NCBI GenBank assembly: GCA_965261545.1
Contig: CBDHDF010000010.1
Location: 320,001 to 384,000 of the forward strand
DNA: 64,000 bases
Source: Bdellovibrionales bacterium
GTDB lineage: Bacteria; Bdellovibrionota; Bdellovibrionia; Bdellovibrionales; UBA1609
Direction: 5' to 3'
Shown: positions 4,712-41,033 of the stretch, piece after piece
Layout: every line of letters begins with the position of its first letter
Numbering within the stretch: the first letter of the stretch is position 1
Program-made: the position numbers and the translations under genes
Notes under the pieces: generated by a model
Databases searched by the model: none
The model's input: only the letters and a program-made list of their open reading frames with translations
Told to the model about the DNA's origin: nothing

Positions 4712-6600
4712 GGGACTGTAAAAATAATTGTGTAACTGCAATTTTTTTCTTAAATCTTAAAGCCACTTATGTGGCTCCACTCCTGGTAAAAAGCACAGTC
4801 CCATATTATTCGTCAATGTATAATTGACATTTTTTCCTTCAAGCGATTTTGTCAGTCACAATGCATTATAAGTTAATGGGGAGGTGGACATCTTCGCTGG
4901 TCTATATAATTGGCCTCTTTAGTTACTCTGGACTTTTGATTGTATTATGGAGCCGTAATGGGATCATATCAGAACTGGAAAGAACTCAAATAAATAATTA
5001 TCATCTTGGTTGAAAAAAAATCAGCAATGGCTCTCTCAAAAAAATGGAAATTCCAATCTCATCAAAGGGTTCATGTGTTTAGGTTCCCATACTATATTAC
5101 CCCCTTTTTTTTATTTTTTTTAACTTAGGATATTCGAGAAATACCAGAATTGGGATGAAATATGAAAAAAAATGGGAACCCAAATCTGCACCAAGAGGGC
5201 ATGTATTTAGGTTCCCATACTATATTACCCTAACCATAGTCTCGGTATTCCAGTACTTCTGTCAACGCCTTAGAGGGGCTTTTAAGCCCCCTTATAAGGC
5301 AGGTGGTGGACCTTATTAAAAAACTTAGTTGTCAAAACGGTCACCGTATTCAATGGCAAACCTGTTCATGGCTGGCTTCCAGTTGTGTAATGGTCGTGTC
5401 CATCGCTTAGAGGCCATTTTTATCGCTAAATATACAACTTTTAAAGCCGACCGATCACTGGGAAATATCTTACGATTTCTGATCGCCTTGCGGATCACGC
5501 TATTTAACGACTCTATGGCGTTTGTGGTATAAAAAATCTTTCTGATTTCATCCGGATAATCGAAAATAGTGATGAGATTGTCCCAATTCCTACGCCAAGA
5601 CTTTTCAATATTCGGATACTTTGAAGACCACTTGGTACAAAATTCCTCAAGGGCCTTTTCAGCTTCTGTCAGAGTCGTAGAGCCATAAATGGACTTGAGG
5701 TCTTGGGCGACAGCTTTCATATCCTTGGAAGGAACATAGCGAAGGGAATTGCGGACCATATGGACAATGCACAGTTGTACTTTAGACTTGGGAAAAGCCG
5801 CTGAAATGGCTTGAGGAAAACCTGTAAGACCATCTACAGAAAATATAAATACGTCTTTCAACCCTCGATTTTGCAGCTCAGTCAAAACACTCAACCAAAA
5901 CTTTGAACCCTCATTTTCAGAAATCCATAGGCCCAACAAGTCTTTCTGACCCTCCTCTGTAATACCAAGAGCTAGGTAAATCGCCTTATTAATAACTCTC
6001 TTGTCTTGATGGACCTTCACCACGATACAGTCCAAAAATACGATAGGGTAAGTGCTATCCAAGGGGCGGTTCTGCCAAGCCGTAACTTCATCAATAACAG
6101 CATCCGTCACGTTGGCTATCACTGAGTGGGATATCTCTGCACCATGGTAGAGGTCTTTGATAGCTCCTTGAATATCCCTGGTCGTCATTCCCCTCGCATA
6201 GAGGGTCAGAATACTGTCTTCAAAGCCCTCAAGACGAGTCTTGCCTTTGGGAATGACTTGGGGCTCAAAGGAGGCACTTCGGTCACGGGGGACCTGAAGC
6301 TCCACCTCGCCTTTCTCTCCCTTTATGGTCTTTCTACTGTAACCATTGCGAGTGTTGGATTTGCGGGTCTCAGACTTCTCATGCCTCTCATAACCTAGGT
6401 GATCGTCCATTTCCGCATTAAGAGCTGTCTCTAAAACAACCTTCATCAGTTGACCCGTTATGTCGGATAAATCCTTTTGGGTCTTGACGTTCTTCGCTAG
6501 TTCCTTGCCTATTGTCTTGATATCCATTTTGCCTTCTCCTTTCAGGATGATAGTTCATCCTAATATGATTCGGCAGTTACACAAAATAGTTTACAGGCTC
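4712..6600 (-). mobile_element. IS256-family element, 8-bp TSD tagaaaat
   Basis: IRs gggactgtaaaaataattgtgtaactgc / gcagttacacaaaatagtttacaggctc; TSD 4704-4711 and 6601-6608. Confidence 0.9.
5325..6527 (-). CDS. IS256-family (Mutator) transposase
   Basis: RNGY, VPRDR, LYARGMTTRDI, QLCIVH, YTTNAIES motifs. Confidence 0.95.
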   Translation of the reverse strand: MDIKTIGKELAKNVKTQKDLSDITGQLMKVVLETALNAEMDDHLGYERHEKSETRKSNTRNGYSRKTIKGEKGEVELQVPRDRSASFEPQVIPKGKTRLEGFEDSILTLYARGMTTRDIQGAIKDLYHGAEISHSVIANVTDAVIDEVTAWQNRPLDSTYPIVFLDCIVVKVHQDKRVINKAIYLALGITEEGQKDLLGLWISENEGSKFWLSVLTELQNRGLKDVFIFSVDGLTGFPQAISAAFPKSKVQLCIVHMVRNSLRYVPSKDMKAVAQDLKSIYGSTTLTEAEKALEEFCTKWSSKYPNIEKSWRRNWDNLITIFDYPDEIRKIFYTTNAIESLNSVIRKAIRNRKIFPSDRSALKVVYLAIKMASKRWTRPLHNWKPAMNRFAIEYGDRFDN

Positions 6601-8539
6601 TAGAAAATATTAAGGGACTGCATCGTAAGGAATTGAAGTATTTGATACCCATGAGTTTTAGAACAAAACTCTCAAGAGAGCTTGCTGTGGCTTTAAATGA
6701 GAAAATAAAATCTCCATCATGCTCTTTTACTTTTAATGAGGAAATTTATTCGCATTGCAAAGAATCAATAAAAATCGGAGGATTTGATTGTACGGCTCAT
6801 ATTTTCTTAGACAAAGAAAGAAGGGTTTATGAGGAATCTGTGTTAATGAAAGAGTTGCTTGATTTTATGAAACTCTTTCTTGAGAAAGATTTGAAATCAG
6901 AAGAACAAGCTAGTTCCTATATGAAAGAAACTTTAGGAAATAAAAAAAGGTTTCTCAATATCTCTGATTGCACTCCATTTAAGATTTCTTTAAATGAAGA
7001 AAATATTAATGAAGAATCTTCTACGCTGGGTATTATGATATTAATTACAAATAGTCATGATTTAAAGAAAACAGATATATTGAGTTTATATCGAAACAAA
7101 GATATCATTGAGAAAGTATTTTTCTCATTCAAGCATGATATTAATGGAAGGAGAAGTCGAGTTCATTCTCTCATGAATATGAGAGGAAGCATCTTTATTA
7201 ATTTTCTCTCTTTAATTTTAATTTCACATATTGATACTGTTATGAAAGATAAGAAGTTATATAAAAAAATGTCTAAAATAGAAATTTACAAAATGATGGA
7301 CCGATTAAAATTTTATGAATTAGCTACAGGTGATCTGATGCTTGGAGAGCTGTCTAAAAAACAAAAGGATATTTTTTCAGCCTTCCAAATAGATGGGCTT
7401 CCCAAGACAAAATGATGTTTTTTATCTGTTTCAAATGTGACGGTGGCTGTGGCTACCACTATGCCTCATCTATCCAATGGAGACGAAGAGGACCTTTCGC
7501 AGCAAATTCTTATGAATCATATTAAATATATTAATACTATTAAACCTCTCAAACCGTTGACAGCAGCCAATTCCATAGGAAGAGAGGAAAGTTAACGCAA
7601 TACATTAAACCTAGTTACAACTTTTAGGGATTTCAGGAAATTATCATCCAAGAGCGTCAAAATCAATACTTTTATTTCCAATAAAGGTTATAAAAAATAT
7701 GTACATATTCCTGACAGTAAAGATCAGAAACCCATACTTAATGTAAAATTCATAGATGAAGAAGAAAAAAAGGATGGCTTTTTTGCTATTGTAACTAACG
7801 TCAAAGACGTGAAATCTAGCGAAATCCTTAAGAATTATAAGGAGCTTTGGAAGATAGAAGATGCCTTTGGGGAGCTAAAAGGAACTTTGAAAACCCGTCC
7901 TATTTTTCATTGGACCGATAATAGAATTATCGGTCACCTGGTCTTGTGTTTCTTGGCTTATTTATGTGAGGCTCATTTAACAAAGAGGCTCAGAGACAAA
8001 AAGTTAGCTTTAAAAAGCCAAGCTATTGAGGATAAAGCTATAAAGCCAAGGGCCTTGACCATAGTGGAAGCTATGAAGGAATTACGGGAGGTCAAAGCTA
8101 TACCTGTTAAAATAGGTCATCGTACCGTGTGGGTACGCACAGATATTGCCGGTAATGCAGCGGCCTTATTTCGAGCCACAGGGCGGGCTATTCCTCCCAA
8201 ACTACTCAAGTGTGGGGAGATTCAACCATGTAAGTAGAAAAAAGCAGGCTCAAAATAATGCATTCAGTCTTATCCTCCGATTTGTGGTGGCACAAAAAAC
8301 AACTGTGTGCGTTAAGTACTTGATACTACATGTTTGACGCAAATGCTTCTGTCAAACTCGGGCCATCGTTGTGTCATATTATATTTGAACCATTCCCAAA
8401 GGGGAGAGACTCAAATGGACCCACGCATAGAGACATTGCCTTCAACAACTTTTTTTGGAAGACGCTTGACGCGCAAGCAAATTGCCGACATTCAAAAGAC
8501 GGTGGCGCTATTTCATCCTAATATGTGTTCGTATCGAAA

Positions 8540-20655: not shown

Positions 20656-22413
20656 CTATGATTTATGATTGCCTCGTGATTGCATTTGATAAAAGCGAGC
20701 GTACTCTCCACTAAGGGCGATAAGTTCTTCGTGTCGCCCTTGTTCAAAGATGGCGCCATCTTTGAGAACAAGAATGCGGTCGGCTTTGACGAGGGTGGAA
20801 AGCCTGTGTGCAATCACAAGAGATGTACGTCCTTGCATCAGTTGATCTAAGCCTTTTTGCACCTCCAGCTCACTTTCTGAATCGAGAGCACTGGTGGCTT
20901 CGTCGAGGATGAGAATGGGAGCGTCCTTATAAATAGCTCTTGCTATACTAATTCGTTGTTTCTCTCCTCCAGAGAGGCGGCTTCCCTTTTCGCCCACTCG
21001 GCTGGCGTAGCTCCCCTGAATAGCAGAAATAAAGCTGTGGGCATTGGCCATTTCAGCGGCTTCCACAACTCCACTTTCTTGTTTGACCTGTTTCGTGAGG
21101 CTTCCAAGGCGGATATTATTTTCGATAGAATCTGAAAAGAGAAAGATATCTTGAGTGACAAGGGCAATATTTTTTCTAAGGTCTTTGAGTTCTATTTCTG
21201 TGATGGGAATCTCATCAATAAGGATTTGCCCCCACTGGGGTTCGTAAAATCTTTCGAGTAAATTGACAAGAGTGGATTTGCCACTACCGCTGGATCCAAC
21301 AATGGCCAACATTTCCCCACGGTGAATGGAGAAATTGAGACCACTGAGAACTTCCCTTCCATTCTCAAAGGAGAAGCTGACATTGCGATACTCAATGGCA
21401 CTCCAATTTTTTGGAAATTTCTGCTTTGGAAATTTCTTTTTTGAAGTGGTCTCGGAGCTTGGAGCTTGGAGAATACTTTCCATGCGTTTTATGGCGACGG
21501 CGGCTTGCTGAAGTCTGATATAGGCATACTGACTTTTCTTGAGACCATCTGCAAGAAACCCACTGGCTGTAATAAACTCTATAAAGGAAGAAACTTCAAC
21601 CCCATCACTATGGGAGATTTGGAGGCCCAAGATATAAAGAGTTGTGGCTAGGGCAACAGCTAAAACAGATTCAGCCATGGGTCCCGCAGCTTCCTCTCTT
21701 TTCAGTATAGACCTGCGTGTTCTTAGAAATTGTGTGGCACCACTGTCAAAGCGTTTTTTCATCTCCCCTTCAAGGTTAAAGGATTGAATGACTTGGGCTC
21801 CATCGAGACTTTCTTTAAGTGTGCTGGTGAGTTCCTCCATAATCTGCTGGTTTCTATGGCCGTACTTTCTTAGACTCCGAGAAAATTTCTTGAGAATTAT
21901 GGGAATCACGAGGATGAGTGCAAAGATCATAAAAAGAAACTTTAAGTCAATGAAAGCAATAATGACGATACTGATTAAAACCAGGGCGGGCTGACTGAAT
22001 AAATCACTGATTCTTGGCAAATTTTCGTGAACGATTTGTAGGTCGTTGATAAGGTGGCTAATAAGTCCTCCCGATCCTTTGGAAAGACTTTCTCGATAGG
22101 AGAAGCTCAAGCGTAAATATTTATCCATTAATTTGCGACGGAGGTTGATGATGACAGTGTCGACGATATATTTGGTCCAGAACATATTGATAAAACGACC
22201 GGCACCTATCATGAGCCAGCCACAGGCCAGGGCCACAGGGATTTGCCATGCCAATTCTTGGTTTCCCTTTTCCCAAGCATCTGTGAGACTTCCAAGAAGG
22301 GGGCCTGTTGTTGATTTAAGTCCGCTGACAAGCACTCCAGCAAGGAGGACAAAAAAAAGCTTAAGCTTAAAGGGCTGTAACTCGGGCCATATGCGAGCCC
22401 ACATATTTTTCAT
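20656..22413 (-). CDS. ABC exporter, fused permease/ATPase (MsbA-like)
   Basis: TM N-half, Walker A GSSGSGKST, LSGGEKQR, ILDEATSALD, AHRLS. Confidence 0.92.
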   Translation of the reverse strand: MKNMWARIWPELQPFKLKLFFVLLAGVLVSGLKSTTGPLLGSLTDAWEKGNQELAWQIPVALACGWLMIGAGRFINMFWTKYIVDTVIINLRRKLMDKYLRLSFSYRESLSKGSGGLISHLINDLQIVHENLPRISDLFSQPALVLISIVIIAFIDLKFLFMIFALILVIPIILKKFSRSLRKYGHRNQQIMEELTSTLKESLDGAQVIQSFNLEGEMKKRFDSGATQFLRTRRSILKREEAAGPMAESVLAVALATTLYILGLQISHSDGVEVSSFIEFITASGFLADGLKKSQYAYIRLQQAAVAIKRMESILQAPSSETTSKKKFPKQKFPKNWSAIEYRNVSFSFENGREVLSGLNFSIHRGEMLAIVGSSGSGKSTLVNLLERFYEPQWGQILIDEIPITEIELKDLRKNIALVTQDIFLFSDSIENNIRLGSLTKQVKQESGVVEAAEMANAHSFISAIQGSYASRVGEKGSRLSGGEKQRISIARAIYKDAPILILDEATSALDSESELEVQKGLDQLMQGRTSLVIAHRLSTLVKADRILVLKDGAIFEQGRHEELIALSGEYARFYQMQSRGNHKS

Positions 22414-22633
22414 AGCTTTTACATACAGCGATTTGTTTCATCACACAAGCCGCCTTGAAGAACCAGGAAAGCCAGTTTTGCAGTAGACCACCCAGGGCTT
22501 AATTGACGCCTTGGGACCCCGTGGACCTTGTGGGAGTGGTCGGTTTTGGGTTTTGATCTACGAACACATATATCGTATCAAAGATATTTATATGTTAGCA
22601 AAAACCCTGAGGCATTAGGTCAGGTTAAGATTT

Positions 22634-30199: not shown

Positions 30200-31453
30200 A
30201 GATCCCCACTTTTGGGGAAGGAACTCGCCAGTTATCCACAAAATTTATCCACAGCAGCACTGCGTTGCTAGACATCGGGGTCACAGCCGCAGTGTCGCCA
30301 TGGATAAATTTATGGATAACTGGCTTTTACCGTACTATTTGCTCGTCACTCTCGCGGAGCTTTAGACATTAGCTGCGCCAAGGAATCCTGAAAAATACTC
30401 CATTTACCTCTGCCATAGGGCTGAAGGATGCATTTGGGGTCATGCCAAAAGTGGTGGGCAGAAAATCATTCCTCAGAATCTTGTGGCATAGTCCGAGTTA
30501 AATGATGAGCAAAATAAAGACACTTGACTAAACTCTGAACGAAGAATAACTAAATCAGTACATCATCAACTGGCCGTTTTTCATTGGCGACGGCTTCTAA
30601 AAATGGCCAATTTTAATTGGCGCCTAACAAAGGGCTGTAACTCGGGCCATATGCGAGCCCACATATTTTTCATAGCTTTTACATACAGCGATTTGTTTCA
30701 TCACACAAGCCGACCTTGAAGACCAAGGAAAGCCAGTGTTGCAGTTGACCTCCCAAGGGTTTAATTGACGCCCCGGGACACCGTGGACCTTGTGGGAGTG
30801 GTCGTTTGCTCATCTTGATCTTGGATCTGATTTTTCTAGTGCTTTAGCTCAATGGGCGGCTCAAAATCAAATGGATATCTACCCCTTGCCTTAAAGTGTT
30901 TGTGGTCGGTTTTCGGTTTTGATCTACGAACACATATATCGCATCAAAGATATTTATATGTTAGCAAAACCCTGAGGCATTATGAATTTTTTATTTTTTC
31001 TTTTCGACTCATAACTTTGCTTAATTTGGGTTTTATGTAATCTATAACCAAGGTATGCTATAGGTGCTGAGATACGCCCCTCAAAGGTCTTAGGGTAGCG
31101 TGTTCTTAACTTCCTTCTTCTCAAAATCGAATAGAGAGTGTCTTTTCCCTCATCAAGCGCACTTTTTGTGTGTGTTAGAATGATGATATCATCGACATAC
31201 CTCTGATAAAAAATATGGGTTTGTTGATTAAAAAAATCATCTAAATCTTTAAGATACAACCAAGCGTAAAATGTTGACATTGAGCTTCCTTGAAAAATAC
31301 TCTTTTCTCTCACAGATTTCGTATTTTTTTCTACTGGCAACAAAAGGTCTTGCCAAATGAGAGAATGTAAGCAACGCGGCACTCCTATCTTGAAAATAAG
31401 TTTTTCCAAGATTACGGTGTCCACACTAGCGAAATAAGATTTAACATCTGTCT

Positions 31454-33366
31454 CCCGAGTTTGACAGCAGCATCTGCGTCAAACGAATGATATTAAAGGA
31501 TTAACGCATATAGTTGTATTTTGTTTATCCACACTTGTGGGCATTAAGGATTCTGGGAGGGATGGGGACGCCTGCGGCTTTAAATAAGGAGTTGGCATTG
31601 CCAGTGATATCTGTGCGGGTCCAAATGACTTGATCACGAATTTTAACAGGGATAGCCCTAACTTCCTTGAGTTCCCTCATGGCCTCTACAACAGTTAAAG
31701 GTCGCTCTTTAACATGACCAATGCCTATGGCTGGGCTTTTTAGGTTCATCTTCTTATCTCTTAAACATTTTGTAAGGTGGGCCTCACAAAGATAAGTTAA
31801 AAAGCATAGAGTTAAATGTCCAATAATCCTCTGGTCTGTCCAATGGAAAACAGGACGTGTTTTCAAAGTCCCTTTTAACTCACCAAAAGCATCTTCAATT
31901 TTCCACAATTCTTTGTAGTTGATAATAATCTCATCTGCCGTCAAGTCTTTGACATTTGTAAGGACGGCAAAAAAACCATCAATTTTTTCATCTAATTCTA
32001 TTTGTTCTGCATTTAATTCAGGTTTTTTATTTTTGTCGTCAGCCATCTTTACATATTTCTTATAACCTTTATTGGAAACAAAAGTACTAGACTGAACACC
32101 TTTAGAAGATAGTTTTCCTTCGATCTTTTCAAGAAGGGATTCTCTAGATTTTTTATCTCTCTCTGCTCTTTTCCTAGACCAAGTCACAATACATCTATGC
32201 CCCCCATGGTCTGTTTCGTAAACAGCAAGCTCATTCTCATATACCCAGCTAAAACGATTTAAATCATAGACCTCTTGTTTCTTTTCTTTTTTTAAAGATC
32301 CAAGCTTCATACCAACAATAAACTCGCTTTGATCCTCACTGAGTTTGTCAGTATTAGCCTTTGATAAAAGCCCCCTATCAGCCACAAAAATGAAACGGCG
32401 TACATTAAACTTTTTTCTCATTTTATCAACAATATCTGAAAGCGTCTTGCCTTCAAAAGTATTACCAGGGAAAACCTCAAAACCTAAAGGGATGCCATCC
32501 CGATTCACCAACAAACCAAAGACAACTTGGGTGCAGTCTGATCGTCTCTCTTTACTATAGCCAAATTGACGAAGTTTCCCTAAGTCTGTTCTTGTACTCT
32601 CGAAGCGTAAGGTTGTTAAATCATACAACACAATGTCTACTTGGAAATTAAATAAATCTCGCCCCACCCAATAAAGCGAGTTCTCTATTTCATCCTTATG
32701 GGAGGCAAGTAAGTCCATAGACCGATAAATATGCTGGAGACTCAAATCACCCTTAATCATGTCTGGGTAAAAAGATTTTTGCCAATACTCAAAAACCTTT
32801 AACTTGGAACTAGGAGCAATAAATCGGCTGGCAACTAAGGTAAAAATCACCTTACATAAATCAAATTGAACTTTCTCATGAGAATCTTTTATGTCTTTGA
32901 GGGTCTTATTGATACCCAGTTGATCAAACAACTTTTGTAAAATCAGCAAGGGACCCAAAATGAAAGTCTCTTCGATGTAAAGCTCCTTAGCCAATTGACT
33001 CACAGTGAGAAGCTCTCGGTGGCGGGATACGGCCTGCGCCAAACTATTAATCTTATCCTCTCCTCCTTCTCCAGCCTTACCTAAGGACATGAGCATGCGT
33101 TTTTTGGATTTGCCTTTTTCTCTGTAGGACTCCACAAGGTGGTAGTAGCACTGACCTTTTGAGTTTTTAGTCGTTTGGATGTACATGAGGATATTTTCTA
33201 CATATTTCTATGATATATCAATATTTAAAACGATAAAATCCTATTTTGTTTTCTACACTTTTTTTACGTCAATTTTAATTTTTCCAGCAGCTACCATTAT
33301 ATTTCAGTACAACCCCAATTTCTGGAAATTTCGCATTTTAACGCAGATGCTGCTGTCAAACTCGGG
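31454..33366 (-). mobile_element. IS1634-family element C (1913 bp), 175-bp direct repeats; intact transposase 31525-33186
   Basis: Same terminal IRs as element A; 31279-31453 repeated at 33367-33541. Confidence 0.93.
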
Positions 33367-33854
33367 ATTGAGCTTCCTTGAAAAATACTCTTTTCTCTCA
33401 CAGATTTCGTATTTTTTTCTACTGGCAACAAAAGGTCTTGCCAAATGAGAGAATGTAAGCAACGCGGCACTCCTATCTTGAAAATAAGTTTTTCCAAGAT
33501 TACGGTGTCCACACTAGCGAAATAAGATTTAACATCTGTCTTAAAAACGTAGGAGTAATTTGTCCTTTGGTGGTACAGTTGGCGGATCGCATAGTTCCGC
33601 CCTTTGCCTGCAGTAGACACATAGTTGTGGGCCACCCAATTCTTTGTTGCTACCATATCTCTCAAATAAGATGACAAGCAAAAATCTACAAATCGATCTT
33701 CCCATTCTTTGTAATAAGTTATTAGTTTACCGCCAATGAATTGGGTTTTTCTTTCCGAAAAAAAATAGGATTGATTTTTAATTTGATGGTTGAGTTCGCT
33801 CACAAATTCTTCTTTACGTTGGGCCCAAGACAAAAGGCGAGAACTGTGTTTGGA

Positions 33855-36780
33855 CAGCAATTCCCGTCGAAAAATAGTTTAGGCCACAGTAGTGGCTTCC
33901 AAAAGATTCGCCTCAAAAAGAGTTCGTAGACTTTTGCCTAAGTATCTGTTTGAATATTTGTTGTTGCACATCAGACCAAGGAGGGTTCGTCATGTCGCAT
34001 CAACATTTTAGAAAAGGTCTATCCGCTTCAGGAATGTATTCCCTGTTACACAGTAAATCTCTTGCAGTTCCAGATATAAGATCGCAGCGTCCCCATAGGA
34101 TTCCTCTGAGCGATGCCATTATGTCATCTGTGGCAATGTTTGCCTTGAAAGATCCATCCATGCTTCAGTTTTGTGATCGTGTCCATGACCCAGTGGCAAA
34201 AAACAACCTACACCATTTGTTTCAAATAGGCCAAATTCCTAGTGATACGGCTATGCGAGAGATTTTAGATCCTGTTCCAACCCGTGAGTTTCAAAATTTT
34301 TTTAAATCTTTGTTTACCGTAGCTCAAAGAGGGAAGGTTTTGGAGGGTTACCCATATTTGGGTGGAAAATATCTTCTCAGCATTGATGGAACAGGTGCCT
34401 TTAGCTCCTCGACTATTCATTGTGAGAATTGTTGTATAAAGAATCATCGTGATGAGACGAAGACCTACTATCATCAAATGTTAGCAGGAGTGATTGTTCA
34501 CCCCGATAAGAAACAGGTTATACCTATTGCTCCAGAGCCCATTTCAAACACAGATGGATCGAGCAAAAATGATTGTGAGCGTAATGCAGCCAAACGACTC
34601 CTTGAAGATTTTCGCAGGGAACACCCTCACCTTCCAGTGATTGTTATTGAGGATGGATTGGCTTCCAATGCTCCTCACATCACTCTTCTTAACGAATTAA
34701 AATTAAGTTATATTTTAGGCTGTAAGATGGGGGACCACAAAGTTTTATTTGAGTTTGTAAATGGAGCAGATAGCTTAGGAACAGTTTCTCACTTCACCGT
34801 GGTAGAGAATGGAGTGACACATGAATTTCGATTCATAAATGATGTTTCACTCAATGATTCAAATCCTGATTGTCGAGTGAATTTTATTGAATACAAAGAA
34901 ACGAAAGCAAACGGTAAGGTTCAGCACTTTAGCTGGGTGACTGACATTGAGATCAACGAAGACAACATAATGCAAATAATGAGGGGGGGAAGAGCACGCT
35001 GGAAGATAGAAAATGAAACATTTAATACGTTAAAGAATTTGGGTTACAACTTTGAGCACAATTTTGGCCACGGCAAGCAAAATTTGTCTAACAATTTAGC
35101 CGTGATTATGATGCTGGTATTTTTAGTGGACCAACTTCAACATTTGGCCTGTAAATTGTTTCAAAAGGCGGTAGAAAAAGAGAGGAGACTATCTTATCTA
35201 TGGGATCATATGAGGGGGTATTTCCATACCCTATACTTTAAAAATTGGCAGGAACTCCTCGCCATAATGGCTTATGGGATTAAGCCTATTGAGGTGGACC
35301 CCAATGTCAGACTGAAAAACTTGATTTTTAAGCTACACCACAGCGCACAAAGAAGCCCCGTGTTAATGTGTTAAATCCACCTCTCCCATATGCACCTGAT
35401 AAGGGGTGCAATCCTGAAGAGACTGGTGTGGCCTTTTATTATTATAAAAATTAAAATACGTTTTAAAACCTTTGTTGGCTTGAACCATTGATTTGTCTTG
35501 ATAGCCTTTCAAGTAAACCTCTTCGTACTTAACAGACCGCCAAAGCCGCTCGATCATGATGTTGTCTAAACACCTGCCTTTGCCGTCCATACTGATCGAG
35601 ATTCCATGATTTTTCAATAATTTTGTGAAAACCTCAGAAGTGAATTGGCACCCTTGATCAGTATTGACGATATCAGGGCAACCAAATGTTTCTATGGCTT
35701 CCTCAAAGACTTCTAAACAAAAAGTTGTCTCAAGGCTATTAGAAAGTCTCCAAGACAGAACAAATCGGCTAAACCAATCTATCACAGCTACCAAGTAAGC
35801 AAAGCCACCAGACAACCTTATAAAAGTAATATCAGTAGCCCACACTTGGTTGGGGAAGCAGATATTAAGCCCCTTAAGTAGGTAGGGATAAACCTTATGC
35901 TGATGGTTTCGCTGACTGGTGTTTGGACCTGGGAAGATAGCGAAAAGACACATCTTTTCCATGAGCCGCTGAATCCTCTTGCGGTTGACCCCATGGCCAT
36001 TAAGTCTTAAGTGAGCTGCCATTTTACGGCTCCCATAAAAAGGGGTCTCCAAGTACTGTTTGTCAATTAAACTCATCAGTTTTAAGTTGTAGGCACTCTC
36101 AGGTATGGGCTTGTAGTACAAGGCTCCCTTAGAGAGTCCTAGCAACTCACATTGGCGAGTGACACAAATATTTGGATGTTTCCAATTGATAGCGGCTTTT
36201 TTCTCAGGCATTGAAGCTCTCAGATTTTTTTTTTAACCAATCATTTTCAACCTTTAACTGCCCTATTTGCCGATACAATTCATCAATGGTTTTTCTTTGT
36301 TCTTCTACCTCGTTGTTGTCCTTTTTTTTGCTCGCTAAGGCCTTAGGAATGGCTTCAATAGCTTGCTTCTTCCAATCTTGGATTTGGATGCGGTGAACTC
36401 CATGCTTGGAGGCCAACTCTGCCATTGTGTCAGTCTCACGAATGGCGTCAAGTGCGACTCTGGCCTTAAATTGTGCGCTGTGTTTCTTTCTCATTATCCC
36501 CTCCTATGAGGGGCTTTTTACCCGCTGCGGTGTAACTTAGCAACCAGTCTGTTTTTGGGGTCCACTATATATTGCTGCCTCAGATGTTTTCGACACATCA
36601 TGAGCAGCCATTTTTCTCAAAGTGCCCCAAAGAGTTTAACGTATTTGCCCTAAACTAAAGTCTGGACATTCGCCTCTAAATGGCGAAGACGGGGAGGTTT
36701 ACCTTATTCGATGCAGTGCAATTCTCACACTGAGATTTGGAGGAATTTCAATGTTTTTTCAAGCTCGGCGGGAATTTCTG
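33855..36780 (+). mobile_element. 1643-bp DDE IS copy 2 carrying a nested IS3; TSD gtgtttgga
   Basis: Same IRs and transposase (ORF from 33950) as copy 1; TSD 33846-33854 and 36781-36789. Confidence 0.92.
35290..36569 (-). mobile_element. IS3-family element, orfA 36204-36494 and orfB 35363-36211, 3-bp TSD tat
   Basis: IR core gtggaccccaa; WATDIT, NTDQGCQF, IERLWRSVKYE; A10 run at the orfA end (36225-36234) fits -1 frameshifting. Confidence 0.93.
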
Positions 36781-36892
36781 GTGTTTGGACTTGTGATTAG
36801 AAATGAACGCTGCTAACTTATCTAGTGAGGTTATCATGATCGATCTATGGCCTCTTGGGAAGGGGGATGCCCCCTTGGGTTACACTAGGGCT

Positions 36893-38309
36893 CAATGCCG
36901 TTTCCTTAAGCCACCACACCCCTCTGCCTCTGCGTTAAGCTATTTCTTTTAAAAGAACTCCCAGCCCTTTTGATAGACCTTTCATAGCTTCTTTTGAAGT
37001 GCCTCCTCTTCTCCATTGAAATCTTCATCAGCAACTTTATCTGCTTCCTAAATTTCTGATAGAGCCCCGCAACAAAAAGAGGGATGCTATCCATTATGAA
37101 ATCAAGAATCAGTTTAAAGTTAGGTTTTTTGTAGTCATTTTTTACCAACTGATTCACACTGTCTTCATCCTCATTTATGCTCATTTGAATCTTTGTATAA
37201 TTGAAGAGCCAAAAATAAGAATACAGCTCTTGCAATATTCCATTAAGGCTTGTTGAGTGCCACTGCTCCATTTTCATTGTCGATGTAAAATCACGAAATG
37301 TCGTTTCTATTTCCCAACGACGAGAGTAAAGAGCAACCATATCCTTCTTGTCCAAGGAGCCATGCGGAAGATTAGTGGCCAAAACAGAGAACTCCCCAGT
37401 CTTTGGGTTTTTATACTTATAGAGATGAATGACCACCCCCTCAATAACCATTCGTGAATACCAACCTGGGCCATTAAATAAATTTACAATGGGGATAAAA
37501 GTAGAGCCTCGCTTACAACGCGCAATAAAGAAGTTACTGGCTTGAGCATGGGCCTTAATAATCTCTGTAGATAAATAAAGCCTATCGTAGAGAGTTATGC
37601 TATTACTCTCAAAACTACCTATCATTTGAATAGCATTGGCGATTTCGTTCAGAGCGGGAGAATAGCAAAGATTCTTTGTCACACCCGATAAAACGTCATA
37701 AGCATGAGATAGATACATACGTAAGAAATGAGTTTCCATCTCATTTGGGCAAGGGTACCCACAATAACCCTCCTTTAAAAGATCTTTAGAGCGAGGAAGT
37801 GCTAATTGGTCGCCATCTATGGCATAGATATAAAAACCATGAAACGTTTTTCTCAATGGTTCGTAGTCTGTAATCAAAGATTCAAAGATATCTTTGAAAA
37901 ATAGGTAAGAAATACTTTGACGTATCTTGCTGAGACTGCTTTTGACTGGCATGAGAAGCAGGTCACCAAAATGAGTCCATACCGTCTTAAGAGCGATTTG
38001 GTAGCCTTCGTAATTTGTTCCGGAAATAAGATAGATAATGGTAAAAAAGAAAATTTGAGGATTAAATTTTCGATTCCTTTTTTGTTTTTCTGGATCGACA
38101 AGGTGCTCTGACTTGAAGGAAGAATCAAGTTTTGGTAGAATAAAATGGTCATCTGTGACGCGAACTCGTCATTTGGGGGCTTTCGAGATCAATATTGGAT
38201 TGCATGTGACTTACTCCTTGGTTGAGGGTTGGGTGTAAAATAAAACAAGTCTTATTCTTGTCGATTTATCTAATAATTTCAAGAGATTTTTCTTAAGGAA
38301 ACGGCATTG
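36893..38309 (-). mobile_element. IS4-family element, 10-bp TSD cactagggct; transposase main frame ends at 36906, RBS-bearing ATG at 38205 is out of frame
   Basis: Perfect 18-bp IR caatgccgtttccttaag; AIDG, YDRLY, YSRRWEIETTFRDF motifs. Confidence 0.9.
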
Positions 38310-38560
38310 CACTAGGGCTATTTAAATTGGAGAAGTGATCTCGTTAACATTAACATTTGAATCCCCTGTGTGTGGCTGAGCCACAAAGGCAGACACGCCC
38401 GTTAAGGCGATGTCGCGGACGGTATACAGACCCCGCGGAGTTCATCAAATCGCGACGCTACTGTCGTTACACTTATCGCGACCGTACTATGACGCCCGTC
38501 GATTGAATTGTGGACGTAATGGCGATTGATTACTTCCACTTTAGTTCGCGCCATCGATCG

Positions 38561-39346
38561 TCAAGTGAACATAATTCGGTAGTGAGACCCGTGTTCGACG
38601 CTCGCAATGTACCCGGTCTTGCAACTTATTACCGGCCATTCAGGGAAATCCCCGATCATCATCCCCTTCTTGATCACGACCGGCCCTGCGGTCGGGCCCT
38701 TTACGGCCGCCATCTCAATCATCGGCACCGCCTTTACGGCAGCCACCAGTTGACCGCAACTCACTATCGGAGCATCCGCACGCCCGGGAGCTGCAGCGTC
38801 GGCAGGACTCGTCGAAAGTAGTATCCGCGCTTGCGGCGGACGGAACGGTCTGACGTAAGACCCATCCACAAATGCGACCGACAAATCACCCTGAAACTCT
38901 CCCGTTGTCCCTGTGGGACGAATATTCTTGACCTGCACAGACTGAACTGTAAGCCTGTTGTACACAGCGGTGCCCGCTGCAGCAATGATGTTATGGGATC
39001 CTGTAAAATCACAACCTGTGCGTATGCTCCCGAGGTTGATGTCACTGGGCGTCTCATCAGGTCTCGTGTCGATGGTAAATGGACCTATGGTCTGCTTGAG
39101 ACCATCTTCTGGACTCGAATTTATGCTATCCTTAAAGTGGCAGTTACAGGTCTCAGTATTTTTTAGGGCTTGGAGGATTAAGTAGTGGTTACTTGCGGCT
39201 GCGAGCTGTTCTTTGATGGATGTGAGTTCCGTATGTTGAAAAGAAAACATTTGAATGAGAGTTGTCAGCAGCATCCCAGTAATGACAGTTGCTACCAGAG
39301 TGGCAGCCAGAGAAAAACCTCTATTATTAATATTAATTAGATTCAC
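38561..39346 (-). CDS. Prepilin-type N-terminal cleavage/methylation domain protein; frame continues past the TGA to 38402
   Basis: NNRG|FSLAATLVATVITGMLL class III-like signal (Glu5 absent), gaggtg RBS, several Cys. Confidence 0.75.
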   Translation of the reverse strand: MNLININNRGFSLAATLVATVITGMLLTTLIQMFSFQHTELTSIKEQLAAASNHYLILQALKNTETCNCHFKDSINSSPEDGLKQTIGPFTIDTRPDETPSDINLGSIRTGCDFTGSHNIIAAAGTAVYNRLTVQSVQVKNIRPTGTTGEFQGDLSVAFVDGSYVRPFRPPQARILLSTSPADAAAPGRADAPIVSCGQLVAAVKAVPMIEMAAVKGPTAGPVVIKKGMMIGDFPEWPVISCKTGYIASVEHGSHYRIMFT

Positions 39347-39390
39347 TTAACACCTCTCAACCAAAAAAATATACCATACTAATAGAATAA

Positions 39391-41033
39391 CAGAAATTCC
39401 CGCCGAGCTTGAAAAAACATTGAAATTCCTCCAAATCTCAGTGTGAGAATTGCACTGCATCGAATAAGGTAAACCTCCCCGTCTTCGCCATTTAGAGGCG
39501 AATGTCCAGACTTTAGTTTAGGGCAAATACGTTAAACTCTTTGGGGCACTTTGAGAAAAATGGCTGCTCATGATGTGTCGAAAACATCTGAGGCAGCAAT
39601 AGGCTTAATCCCATAAGCCATTATGGCGAGGAGTTCCTGCCAATTTTTAAAGTATAGGGTATGGAAATACCCCCTCATATGATCCCATAGATAAGATAGT
39701 CTCCTCTCTTTTTCTACCGCCTTTTGAAACAATTTACAGGCCAAATGTTGAAGTTGGTCCACTAAAAATACCAGCATCATAATCACGGCTAAATTGTTAC
39801 ACAAATTTTGCTTGCCGTGGCCAAAATTGTGCTCAAAGTTGTAACCCAAATTCTTTAACGTATTAAATGTTTCATTTTCTATCTTCCAGCGTGCTCTTCC
39901 CCCCCTCATTATTTGCATTATGTTGTCTTCGTTGATCTCAATGTCAGTCACCCAGCTAAAGTGCTGAACCTTACCGTTTGCTTTCGTTTCTTTGTATTCA
40001 ATAAAATTCACTCGACAATCAGGATTTGAATCATTGAGTGAAACATCATTTATGAATCGAAATTCATGTGTCACTCCATTCTCTACCACGGTGAAGTGAG
40101 AAACTGTTCCTAAGCTATCTGCTCCATTTACAAACTCAAATAAAACTTTGTGGTCCCCCATCTTACAGCCTAAAATATAACTTAGTTTTAATTCGTTAAG
40201 AAGAGTGATGTGAGGAGCATTGGAAGCCAATCCATCCTCAATAACAATCACTGGAAGGTGAGGGTGTTCCCTGCGAAAATCTTCAAGGAGTCGTTTGGCT
40301 GCATTACGCTCACAATCATTTTTGCTCGATCCATCTGTGTTTGAAATGGGCTCTGGAGCAATAGGTATAACCTGTTTCTTATCGGGGTGAACAATCACTC
40401 CTGCTAACATTTGATGATAGTAGGTCTTCGTCTCATCACGATGATTCTTTATACAACAATTCTCACAATGAATAGTCGAGGAGCTAAAGGCACCTGTTCC
40501 ATCAATGCTGAGAAGATATTTTCCACCCAAATATGGGTAACCCTCCAAAACCTTCCCTCTTTGAGCTACGGTAAACAAAGATTTAAAAAAATTTTGAAAC
40601 TCACGGGTTGGAACAGGATCTAAAATCTCTCGCATAGCCGTATCACTAGGAATTTGGCCTATTTGAAACAAATGGTGTAGGTTGTTTTTTGCCACTGGGT
40701 CATGGACACGATCACAAAACTGAAGCATGGATGGATCTTTCAAGGCAAACATTGCCACAGATGACATAATGGCATCGCTCAGAGGAATCCTATGGGGACG
40801 CTGCGATCTTATATCTGGAACTGCAAGAGATTTACTGTGTAACAGGGAATACATTCCTGAAGCGGATAGACCTTTTCTAAAATGTTGATGCGACATGACG
40901 AACCCTCCTTGGTCTGATGTGCAACAACAAATATTCAAACAGATACTTAGGCAAAAGTCTACGAACTCTTTTTGAGGCGAATCTTTTGGAAGCCACTACT
41001 GTGGCCTAAACTATTTTTCGACGGGAATTGCTG
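39391..41033 (-). mobile_element. 1643-bp DDE IS copy 3, TSD atagaataa; transposase ORF 39568-40938
   Basis: Same IRs and protein as copies 1 and 2; sits 45 bp upstream of the prepilin gene. Confidence 0.92.

Follow-up and report, generated by a model that had tools for sequence, protein, structure and literature searches.

A recently inactivated prepilin-like and reverse-transcriptase gene cassette, and its intact twin, in a Bdellovibrionales genome rich in insertion sequences

The stretch analyzed here (the window; 64,000 nt of contig CBDHDF010000010.1 of a Bdellovibrionales bacterium, positions 320,001 to 384,000) holds one copy, inactivated recently, of a cassette in which a gene for a prepilin-like adhesin is followed by one for a UG4-like reverse transcriptase (RT). 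Insertion sequences (IS), some with recognizable terminal inverted repeats (IR) and target-site duplications (TSD), now split the RT gene and the spacer ahead of it. In what follows, G000 denotes the source genome, and the prefixes C, L and P denote contigs, loci and homologous proteins. Read in the direction of the cassette, the features in window coordinates are:

39386-41033, minus strand: fifth IS, a second copy of the ISNCY-like element below, 40 bp upstream of the pilin start
38402-39346, minus strand: prepilin-like gene with a type IV N-methyl motif (N_methyl E 0.008), whose frame of 314 codons is interrupted by a TGA at codon 262 (38561-38563)
38600-38728, minus strand: graded zone in the variable tip (codons 207-249), which aligns with the C11 twin without gaps and differs from it at 29 of 129 nt
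38441-38599, minus strand: tip core that cannot be aligned (codons 250-302), with the premature stop; the twin's core is 72 nt longer
38402-38440, minus strand: last 12 pilin codons plus stop, conserved in the twin comparison
38320-38401, minus strand: opening 82 nt of the 137-nt spacer between pilin and RT; a short hairpin follows directly on the pilin stop
36893-38309, minus strand: DDE IS splitting the spacer, presumably IS4-like, with 18-bp terminal IR and a 10-bp TSD
36838-36892, minus strand: last 55 nt of the spacer, with a G/C hairpin kept also ahead of a 63%-identical RT fragment on C7
36790-36837, minus strand: RT piece 1, start codon at 36837
33855-36780, plus strand: IS inside the RT, which we take to be ISNCY/ISAs1-like, flanked by a 9-bp TSD and containing an IS3 at about 35294-36565 (arms 35294-35314 and 36545-36565)
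33367-33854, minus strand: RT piece 2, of which 33367-33541 is the second copy of a 175-bp duplication
31454-33366, minus strand: DDE IS inside the RT, IS1634-like by our assumption, of a kind with long, variable target duplications (here 175 bp, 31279-31453 repeated as 33367-33541)
30954-31453, minus strand: RT piece 3, carrying QGSSMS, YVDD and YLGY

The borders that a preliminary description of this region had assigned to the three IS blocks hold, with the nested IS3, the 175-bp duplication and the 9-bp and 10-bp TSDs. Excising the blocks in a script, together with one duplicate each, leaves an open RT frame of 286 residues with RVT_1 similarity, which starts 137 nt past the second stop of the co-oriented prepilin frame, again as first described. 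The module had been called invisible until the IS are removed; an uninterrupted copy of the cassette, however, turns up on C11 in a plain Pfam search of the genome (G000:C11:1008640-1010654, within locus L009). Because this copy exists, chance is excluded as the source of the rejoined frame. The two RT genes, 99.7% alike, show 3 differences in 861 nt and a single one in 286 residues; the spacers show one difference in 137 nt. The three RT differences bear out the earlier proposal that inactivation was recent. On C11, the cassette (L009:4260-11252) lies between two IS91-like elements of the same orientation and is also flanked by 3′ and 5′ fragments of an ABC-transporter gene, the whole gene being found at 20656-22437 of the window; the upstream fragment has four further copies in the genome. 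This framing suggests rolling-circle or circle-mediated duplication, and we therefore conclude that the cassette was duplicated recently and that the window copy was hit by IS afterwards. An IS load of this kind is ordinary for this IS-riddled genome. The element 40 bp upstream of the pilin probably separates that gene from its promoter.

Further copies of these elements are scattered through the genome. The IS at 31454-33366 has 22 full copies, 16 of which have target duplications of 8-322 bp; long and variable target duplications are a property of IS1549 and IS1634. A third RT copy, on C7 (L010:3419-7924), is 63% identical and ends after 83 codons; its upstream ORF (open reading frame) is a different one, with cysteine-rich repeats, and its pre-start hairpin is the same. 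More RT scraps lie at C7:108326 and C2:273420.

The window pilin is the pseudogene twin of an intact gene of 338 residues on C11, and the genome holds about 20 pilin paralogues. The first 200 residues match N-methyl/PilV-like clusters from Bdellovibrionota (Atlas 0.96). The proposed coupling of the RT to a surface pilin-like gene is upheld. Between the twins, divergence is distributed very unevenly: 8 of the 618 nt of the stalk are different, the graded zone differs far more, the core cannot be aligned, and the last 12 codons are conserved again. The premature stop falls inside the variable tip, while the rest of the window copy has hardly decayed. Both tips appear as a bubble in independent short-read contigs of one sample. 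A third tip is known from P0155, which is indirectly linked with P0001, an RT 96% identical to ours; this was the one outside match when 11 pilin homologues were paired with close RT homologues, an insensitive test. An Atlas search with the pilin tip itself gave nothing above 0.76. The genome also encodes twelve long prepilin-headed fibre genes in tandem clusters (C2:618833-639170, C7:320080-327100 and C7:426745-433640), with repeats and a chaperone-like C-terminus, which by eye resemble Bdellovibrio MAT proteins.

The difference between the two pilin tips hints at RT-driven diversification. In the graded zone, 23 of the 29 differences involve A, and A/G differences outnumber C/T differences by 14 to 1; among 621 paralogue windows of similar divergence, two reach that share of A and one has at most one C/T difference, with the qualification that these windows are not independent and that the zone was picked after the fact, so that the binomial p values of 0.01 (A share) and 0.001 (A/G versus C/T) are post hoc. 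Across the whole pilin gene, 88 of 149 differences involve A, and the graded zone contains three fourfold sites only. Silent composition is also unusual. Fourfold-site GC is 0.68 in both tips, compared with 0.42 genome-wide and 0.658 at the 99th percentile of gene ends, and fourfold-site T falls to 0.10-0.14; over the last 120 codons, GC at these sites is 0.64, versus 0.12-0.47 in 15 of 15 RT-less paralogues. The most A-skewed of the control windows, with 20 of 22 differences, belongs to a lipoprotein repeat family (the ORF starting near C2:491118 and its paralogues).

The RT itself is a stand-alone protein whose sole Pfam domain is RVT_1, with nothing fused to it. Of 53 families in the PADLOC profiles, RT_UG4 scores best (3e-32, 110 bits), ahead of UG17 (92 bits) and UG26 (89 bits), and each of the 26 aligned homologues is matched by the UG4 profile, on which core UG4 proteins reach 300-450 bits. 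In a careful tree of 44 rows, the query falls in a 12-row clade (support 93/98) outside core UG4 plus UG18 (98/93), with a long branch leading to its close clade; RTs of diversity-generating retroelements (DGRs) form a clade of their own (100/100), and group II intron RTs are separate. A quick tree of 73 rows agrees. L170, from a Legionella plasmid, had been entered as UG4 in the quick tree; that assignment was rejected on profile scores, which are those of UG18, and was corrected in the 44-row tree. Because the lineage lies outside core UG4 plus UG18 and has a long branch to its close clade, we file it as UG4-like and not as UG4.

These placements refine the initial assessment. The claim of a short, stand-alone RT that is neither a group II intron, DGR nor retron enzyme agrees with the profile scores and tree clades, and phylogenetic placement, as had been proposed, finds the homologues outside the group II intron clade; the label ‘unclassified or group-II-like’ gives way to UG4-like. 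Curated models for group II intron, DRT, retron and Abi RTs all score far below their cut-offs on the query, including TIGR04416 for group II introns (68.5 bits against 300) and the retron St85 RT model (35 bits against 235), and no Rfam match reaches the gathering score on L009 or L010, neither intron nor retron RNA, with the proviso that Rfam has few retron RNAs. Retron RTs carry NAxxH and VTG motifs, and neither is found in the query sequence; DGR RTs carry GxxxSQ, at which position the query reads QGSSMS.

An AlphaFold model (predicted local distance difference test, pLDDT, 87.5) shows fingers, palm and a single short thumb helix, and the query ends ahead of the C-terminal RLYE..W..W thumb helices seen in relatives. 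Full-length close relatives have 275-286 residues, and top representatives 110-421. In the group of P0002-P0009 and their kin, most close relatives have a catalytic YKDD motif with an unusual residue where the query has YVDD, and all end without the usual thumb. In Foldseek, the top match of the model is the G2L4 RT (PDB 9d4s; E 2e-14, template-modelling score 0.81 over the query), with DRT9, group II intron and DGR RTs little behind. Judged from its sequence and predicted fold, the RT lineage is thus best described as a thumb-reduced, UG4-like sister lineage outside core UG4.

No close RT was found in 108 genomes of the family, where seven weak matches lie near 1e-12, and the lineage is rare, with no match in 383 genomes of the order. 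One of 400 genomes of the phylum has a match, of core-UG4 type, and scans of metagenomes and GTDB yield relatives at 24-48% identity at most. A viral scan returned 80 distant RTs (23-31% identity), which served only as the DGR outgroup. Mestre et al. (2022; PMC9226505) describe UG4 RTs as stand-alone enzymes of unknown function that are found near fimbrial genes and show no enrichment in defence islands; Sharifi and Ye (PMC8934634) place 66% of UG4 (UG/Abi class 2) near fimbrial domains. A search of full-text literature, with most subscription papers outside its reach, found no function for UG4 and no template-free diversification of adhesins by an RT.

The neighbourhoods of related RTs point to a broader association. 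We scanned 27 RTs, 24 of which score best on UG4. In 21 of these 24 loci, the RT 3′ end abuts an exported-protein gene or an ORF resembling a precursor of a ribosomally synthesized and post-translationally modified peptide (RiPP), a count that rests on Pfam or annotation for about half and on signal peptides recognized by eye for the rest, includes several kindred loci and has no random-gene control. Sixteen of the 21 neighbours are convergent, two are co-oriented fimbrial genes and three are RiPP-precursor-like; L136, L138 and L145 are the misses. The neighbours include Lcl_C, collagen-like, PEP-CTERM, carboxypeptidase-regulatory, MrpH and invasin proteins as well as lasso-type clusters. The preliminary description had proposed tabulating the neighbourhoods of homologues for prepilin genes; a prepilin neighbour is shown for the two copies here and, indirectly, for P0001/P0155 only, and relatives lie by many other kinds of exported protein. 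A conserved stalk with a scrambled tip recurs in the Salmonella invasins of L167 and L171 and in the tandem precursors of L134; in L124 and L129 the neighbours agree at about 90% over their beginnings and are scrambled toward the end, and Escherichia fimbrial operons are 83-85% alike while the gene behind the RT is unalignable. Simple folding of 10 UG4-type loci revealed no upstream RNA structure shared among them.

In lasso-peptide-like clusters (PqqD, B2 peptidase, Asn-synthase, sulfotransferase), a small precursor-like ORF overlaps the UG4 RT. L134 has two such ORFs in tandem, whose leaders are near-identical and whose 29-residue cores are unalignable but end in the same three residues. The precursor-like ORFs are:

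L134: 10696-10860 and 11309-11470
L131: 7745-7910
L130: 10746-11051

What, then, might the RT do? Tentatively, we regard it as most likely that the RT helps to renew the exposed end of the adjacent surface protein and needs no separate template repeat to do so. First, the RT would copy RNA that spans the 3′ end of the pilin gene itself, with initiation close to the spacer hairpins or the conserved final codons. Second, error-prone or template-switched cDNA could recombine back across a tract of variable length, which would leave a core saturated with changes, bounded sharply on the 3′ side and fading out on the 5′ side. Finally, selection would retain working tips as new binding ends for a surface filament, in events that are rare and unlike a DGR storm. 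The preliminary description had offered diversification or defence; the former gains circumstantial support from our results, and the latter does not, as discussed below.

Several observations weigh against RT-driven diversification. In invasins lacking an RT, the tips are just as impossible to align and silent GC falls similarly (7 genes, 4 of 4 pairs), and the Salmonella tip pattern is therefore not RT-specific; we had considered those tips and their silent-GC drop as support and rejected them on this control. Fourfold sites in the Salmonella pairs show no A bias (14/35, 12/22 and 20/46). Next to an intact RT, two E. (Escherichia) albertii plasmids carry the same neighbour gene, with 5 differences in 10,603 nt between the plasmids, and no third tip form appears in the read contigs of the one sample, such contigs dropping rare variants. 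Tip variation is also seen in prepilin alleles with no known RT, as in P0168, P0169 and P0171 and in G000:C10:660768-662018 versus G000:C5:21220-22566, whose flanks are about 100% identical and whose differences, confined to the last 170 codons, comprise 32 non-synonymous codons against 1 synonymous, 42 of 49 changes at codon positions 1-2 and in-frame indels; these alleles have no adjacent RT, and no template repeat for them was found in the assembly. The C10 allele is frameshifted close to its start. The variable DNA is on the 5′ side of the RT here, but on the 3′ side in core UG4. Silent-site A is not depleted in any tip (A 0.19-0.22), which rules out simple one-way A-to-N self-templating. 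Last, the UG4 RTs of L122 and L124/L129 are 98% identical, are frameshifted alike and lie next to secreted proteins unrelated to each other, with homology stopping at the RT's last motif; the RT is therefore mobile and could merely favour such sites.

Many of these points favour another explanation, in which ordinary allele exchange between conserved flanks, followed by positive selection, renews the tips, and the RT is a mobile passenger or a recombination anchor with some other job, either self-spread or repair as in G2L4. We consider this nearly as likely as the RT-assisted renewal, both being somewhat short of an even chance. It would account for the variation in RT-less controls, the absence of A bias at Salmonella silent sites, the identical E. 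albertii neighbours and the movement of the RT between unrelated genes in L122 and L124, and it sits well with the different ORF upstream of the C7 copy and with G2L4 as the top fold match. By contrast, it leaves unexplained why a mobile RT should stand at the ends of exported-protein genes in 21 of 24 loci, why the tips are GC-rich and T-poor in an AT-rich host, why the graded zone is skewed toward A and how a freshly exchanged tip came to contain a stop codon.

A second alternative is a DGR-like system whose template repeat has been lost or lies outside the assembly, with the query RT or the DGR RT on C4 mutating prepilin tips in trans. The A-skewed differences would fit, as would the concentration of changes at codon positions 1-2 in the C10/C5 alleles, and the genome does contain a canonical, complete DGR on C4 (L017:4214-7574; G000:C4:57213-60573), which comprises an FGE-sulfatase-like target with its variable region at 5258-5385, an RT, a template repeat at 7447-7574 and, by eye, HRDC-like and Avd-like genes, and in which 14 of 15 differences fall at template A. 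A degraded second DGR RT lies at the start of C4. We nevertheless judge this alternative improbable. A near-copy of the tip at 38402-38760 differing mainly at adenines, which the preliminary description had proposed to look for, was not found; indeed, no A-only near-copy exists for any of four tips (the two RT-linked tips and the C10 and C5 prepilins) in 4.3 Mb of an assembly that is 96.8% complete, and template-repeat scans of the tips gave self matches and A-rich low-complexity noise only. The same kind of scan detected all three DGR controls (L017, L036 and L078) and no template repeat in any UG4-type locus among 45 loci, L009 included. Moreover, neither an Avd gene nor another accessory ORF lies on either side of the pilin and RT genes, which have the 137-nt spacer alone between them; the RT is outside the DGR clade; and the C4 template matches its own FGE-sulfatase-like target only.

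Less probable still is an anti-phage RT of the DRT type that guards a pilus used as a phage receptor. Membership in the UG/Abi superfamily and weak matches to Drt3a (67.5 bits, cut-off 200) and Drt2 (37 bits, cut-off 390) speak for it, but these scores and that of Drt4 (18.5 bits, cut-off 450) are far below the thresholds, no partner or effector gene is present, the neighbours are an ABC-transporter fragment, IS and housekeeping genes, and UG4 as described in PMC9226505 lacks enrichment in defence islands. A truncated group II intron RT left behind a pilin gene by chance is very improbable, for although group II intron RTs are abundant in this genome and most of the thumb is missing, the clade is separate from group II, full-length relatives are equally short and L009 and L010 contain no Rfam intron match.

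More broadly, UG4 and its sister lineage could form a second, widespread class of diversity-generating RTs that work without a template repeat, copying RNA from the end of the adjacent exported-protein gene and writing errors back repeatedly until that end is scrambled and the stalk remains intact. Pilin tips, invasin tips, fimbrial lectin domains, Lcl domains, RHS ends and RiPP cores would all be ends of this kind. We give this generalization limited credence and think it more doubtful than the proposal for the pilin alone. UG4 is among the few bacterial RT groups without an assigned function or a defence signal, and the live and freshly killed copies described here, with RTs 99.7% alike and an unalignable pilin tip, constitute a natural pair for a direct test of diversification. 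If the RT does diversify its neighbour, DGRs would have in it a counterpart that works without a template; otherwise, the RT is a divergent member of a known puzzle in an IS-riddled genome. What is new here is the position of the lineage outside core UG4, the lost thumb, the upstream type IV partner, the spectrum and composition tests with controls, and a neighbourhood rule, in which RTs stand at the variable ends of exported proteins unrelated to one another, that is wider than the published ‘near fimbrial genes’.

The cassette can be compared with several known systems. Like a DGR, it combines a short RT with a surface protein that has a variable C-terminus, a conserved 3′ end, a hairpin past the stop and an A-skewed alignable flank. 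In contrast to DGRs, it has no template repeat and no Avd, its RT belongs to another clade, and its tips show large indels and saturation that extends to silent sites, with silent A retained. The G2L4 RT, a group II intron-like repair enzyme, is the closest in fold; however, identity is 17-18%, G2L4 has a full thumb (408 residues), and many RT classes match about equally.

Variable-tip adhesins diversified by recombination, such as inverse autotransporters and the MAT fibres of Bdellovibrio (PMC10769870), share the arrangement of a conserved anchor end and a diversified distal end, but have no RT among their components. RT-less invasin tips, moreover, are mostly AT-rich, whereas the pilin tips here are GC-rich in an AT-rich host. 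The nearest relatives in kind are the UG4 RTs, with which ours shares a stand-alone architecture without a fused domain, the best-scoring profile, an adhesin-type neighbour and a lack of defence context. It differs from them in its low score, its branching outside the core, the loss of the thumb end and close relatives that mostly carry YKDD; and its partner is an upstream, co-oriented type IV prepilin-like gene, in place of the chaperone-usher fimbriae or the convergent gene at the RT 3′ end that accompany UG4 elsewhere.

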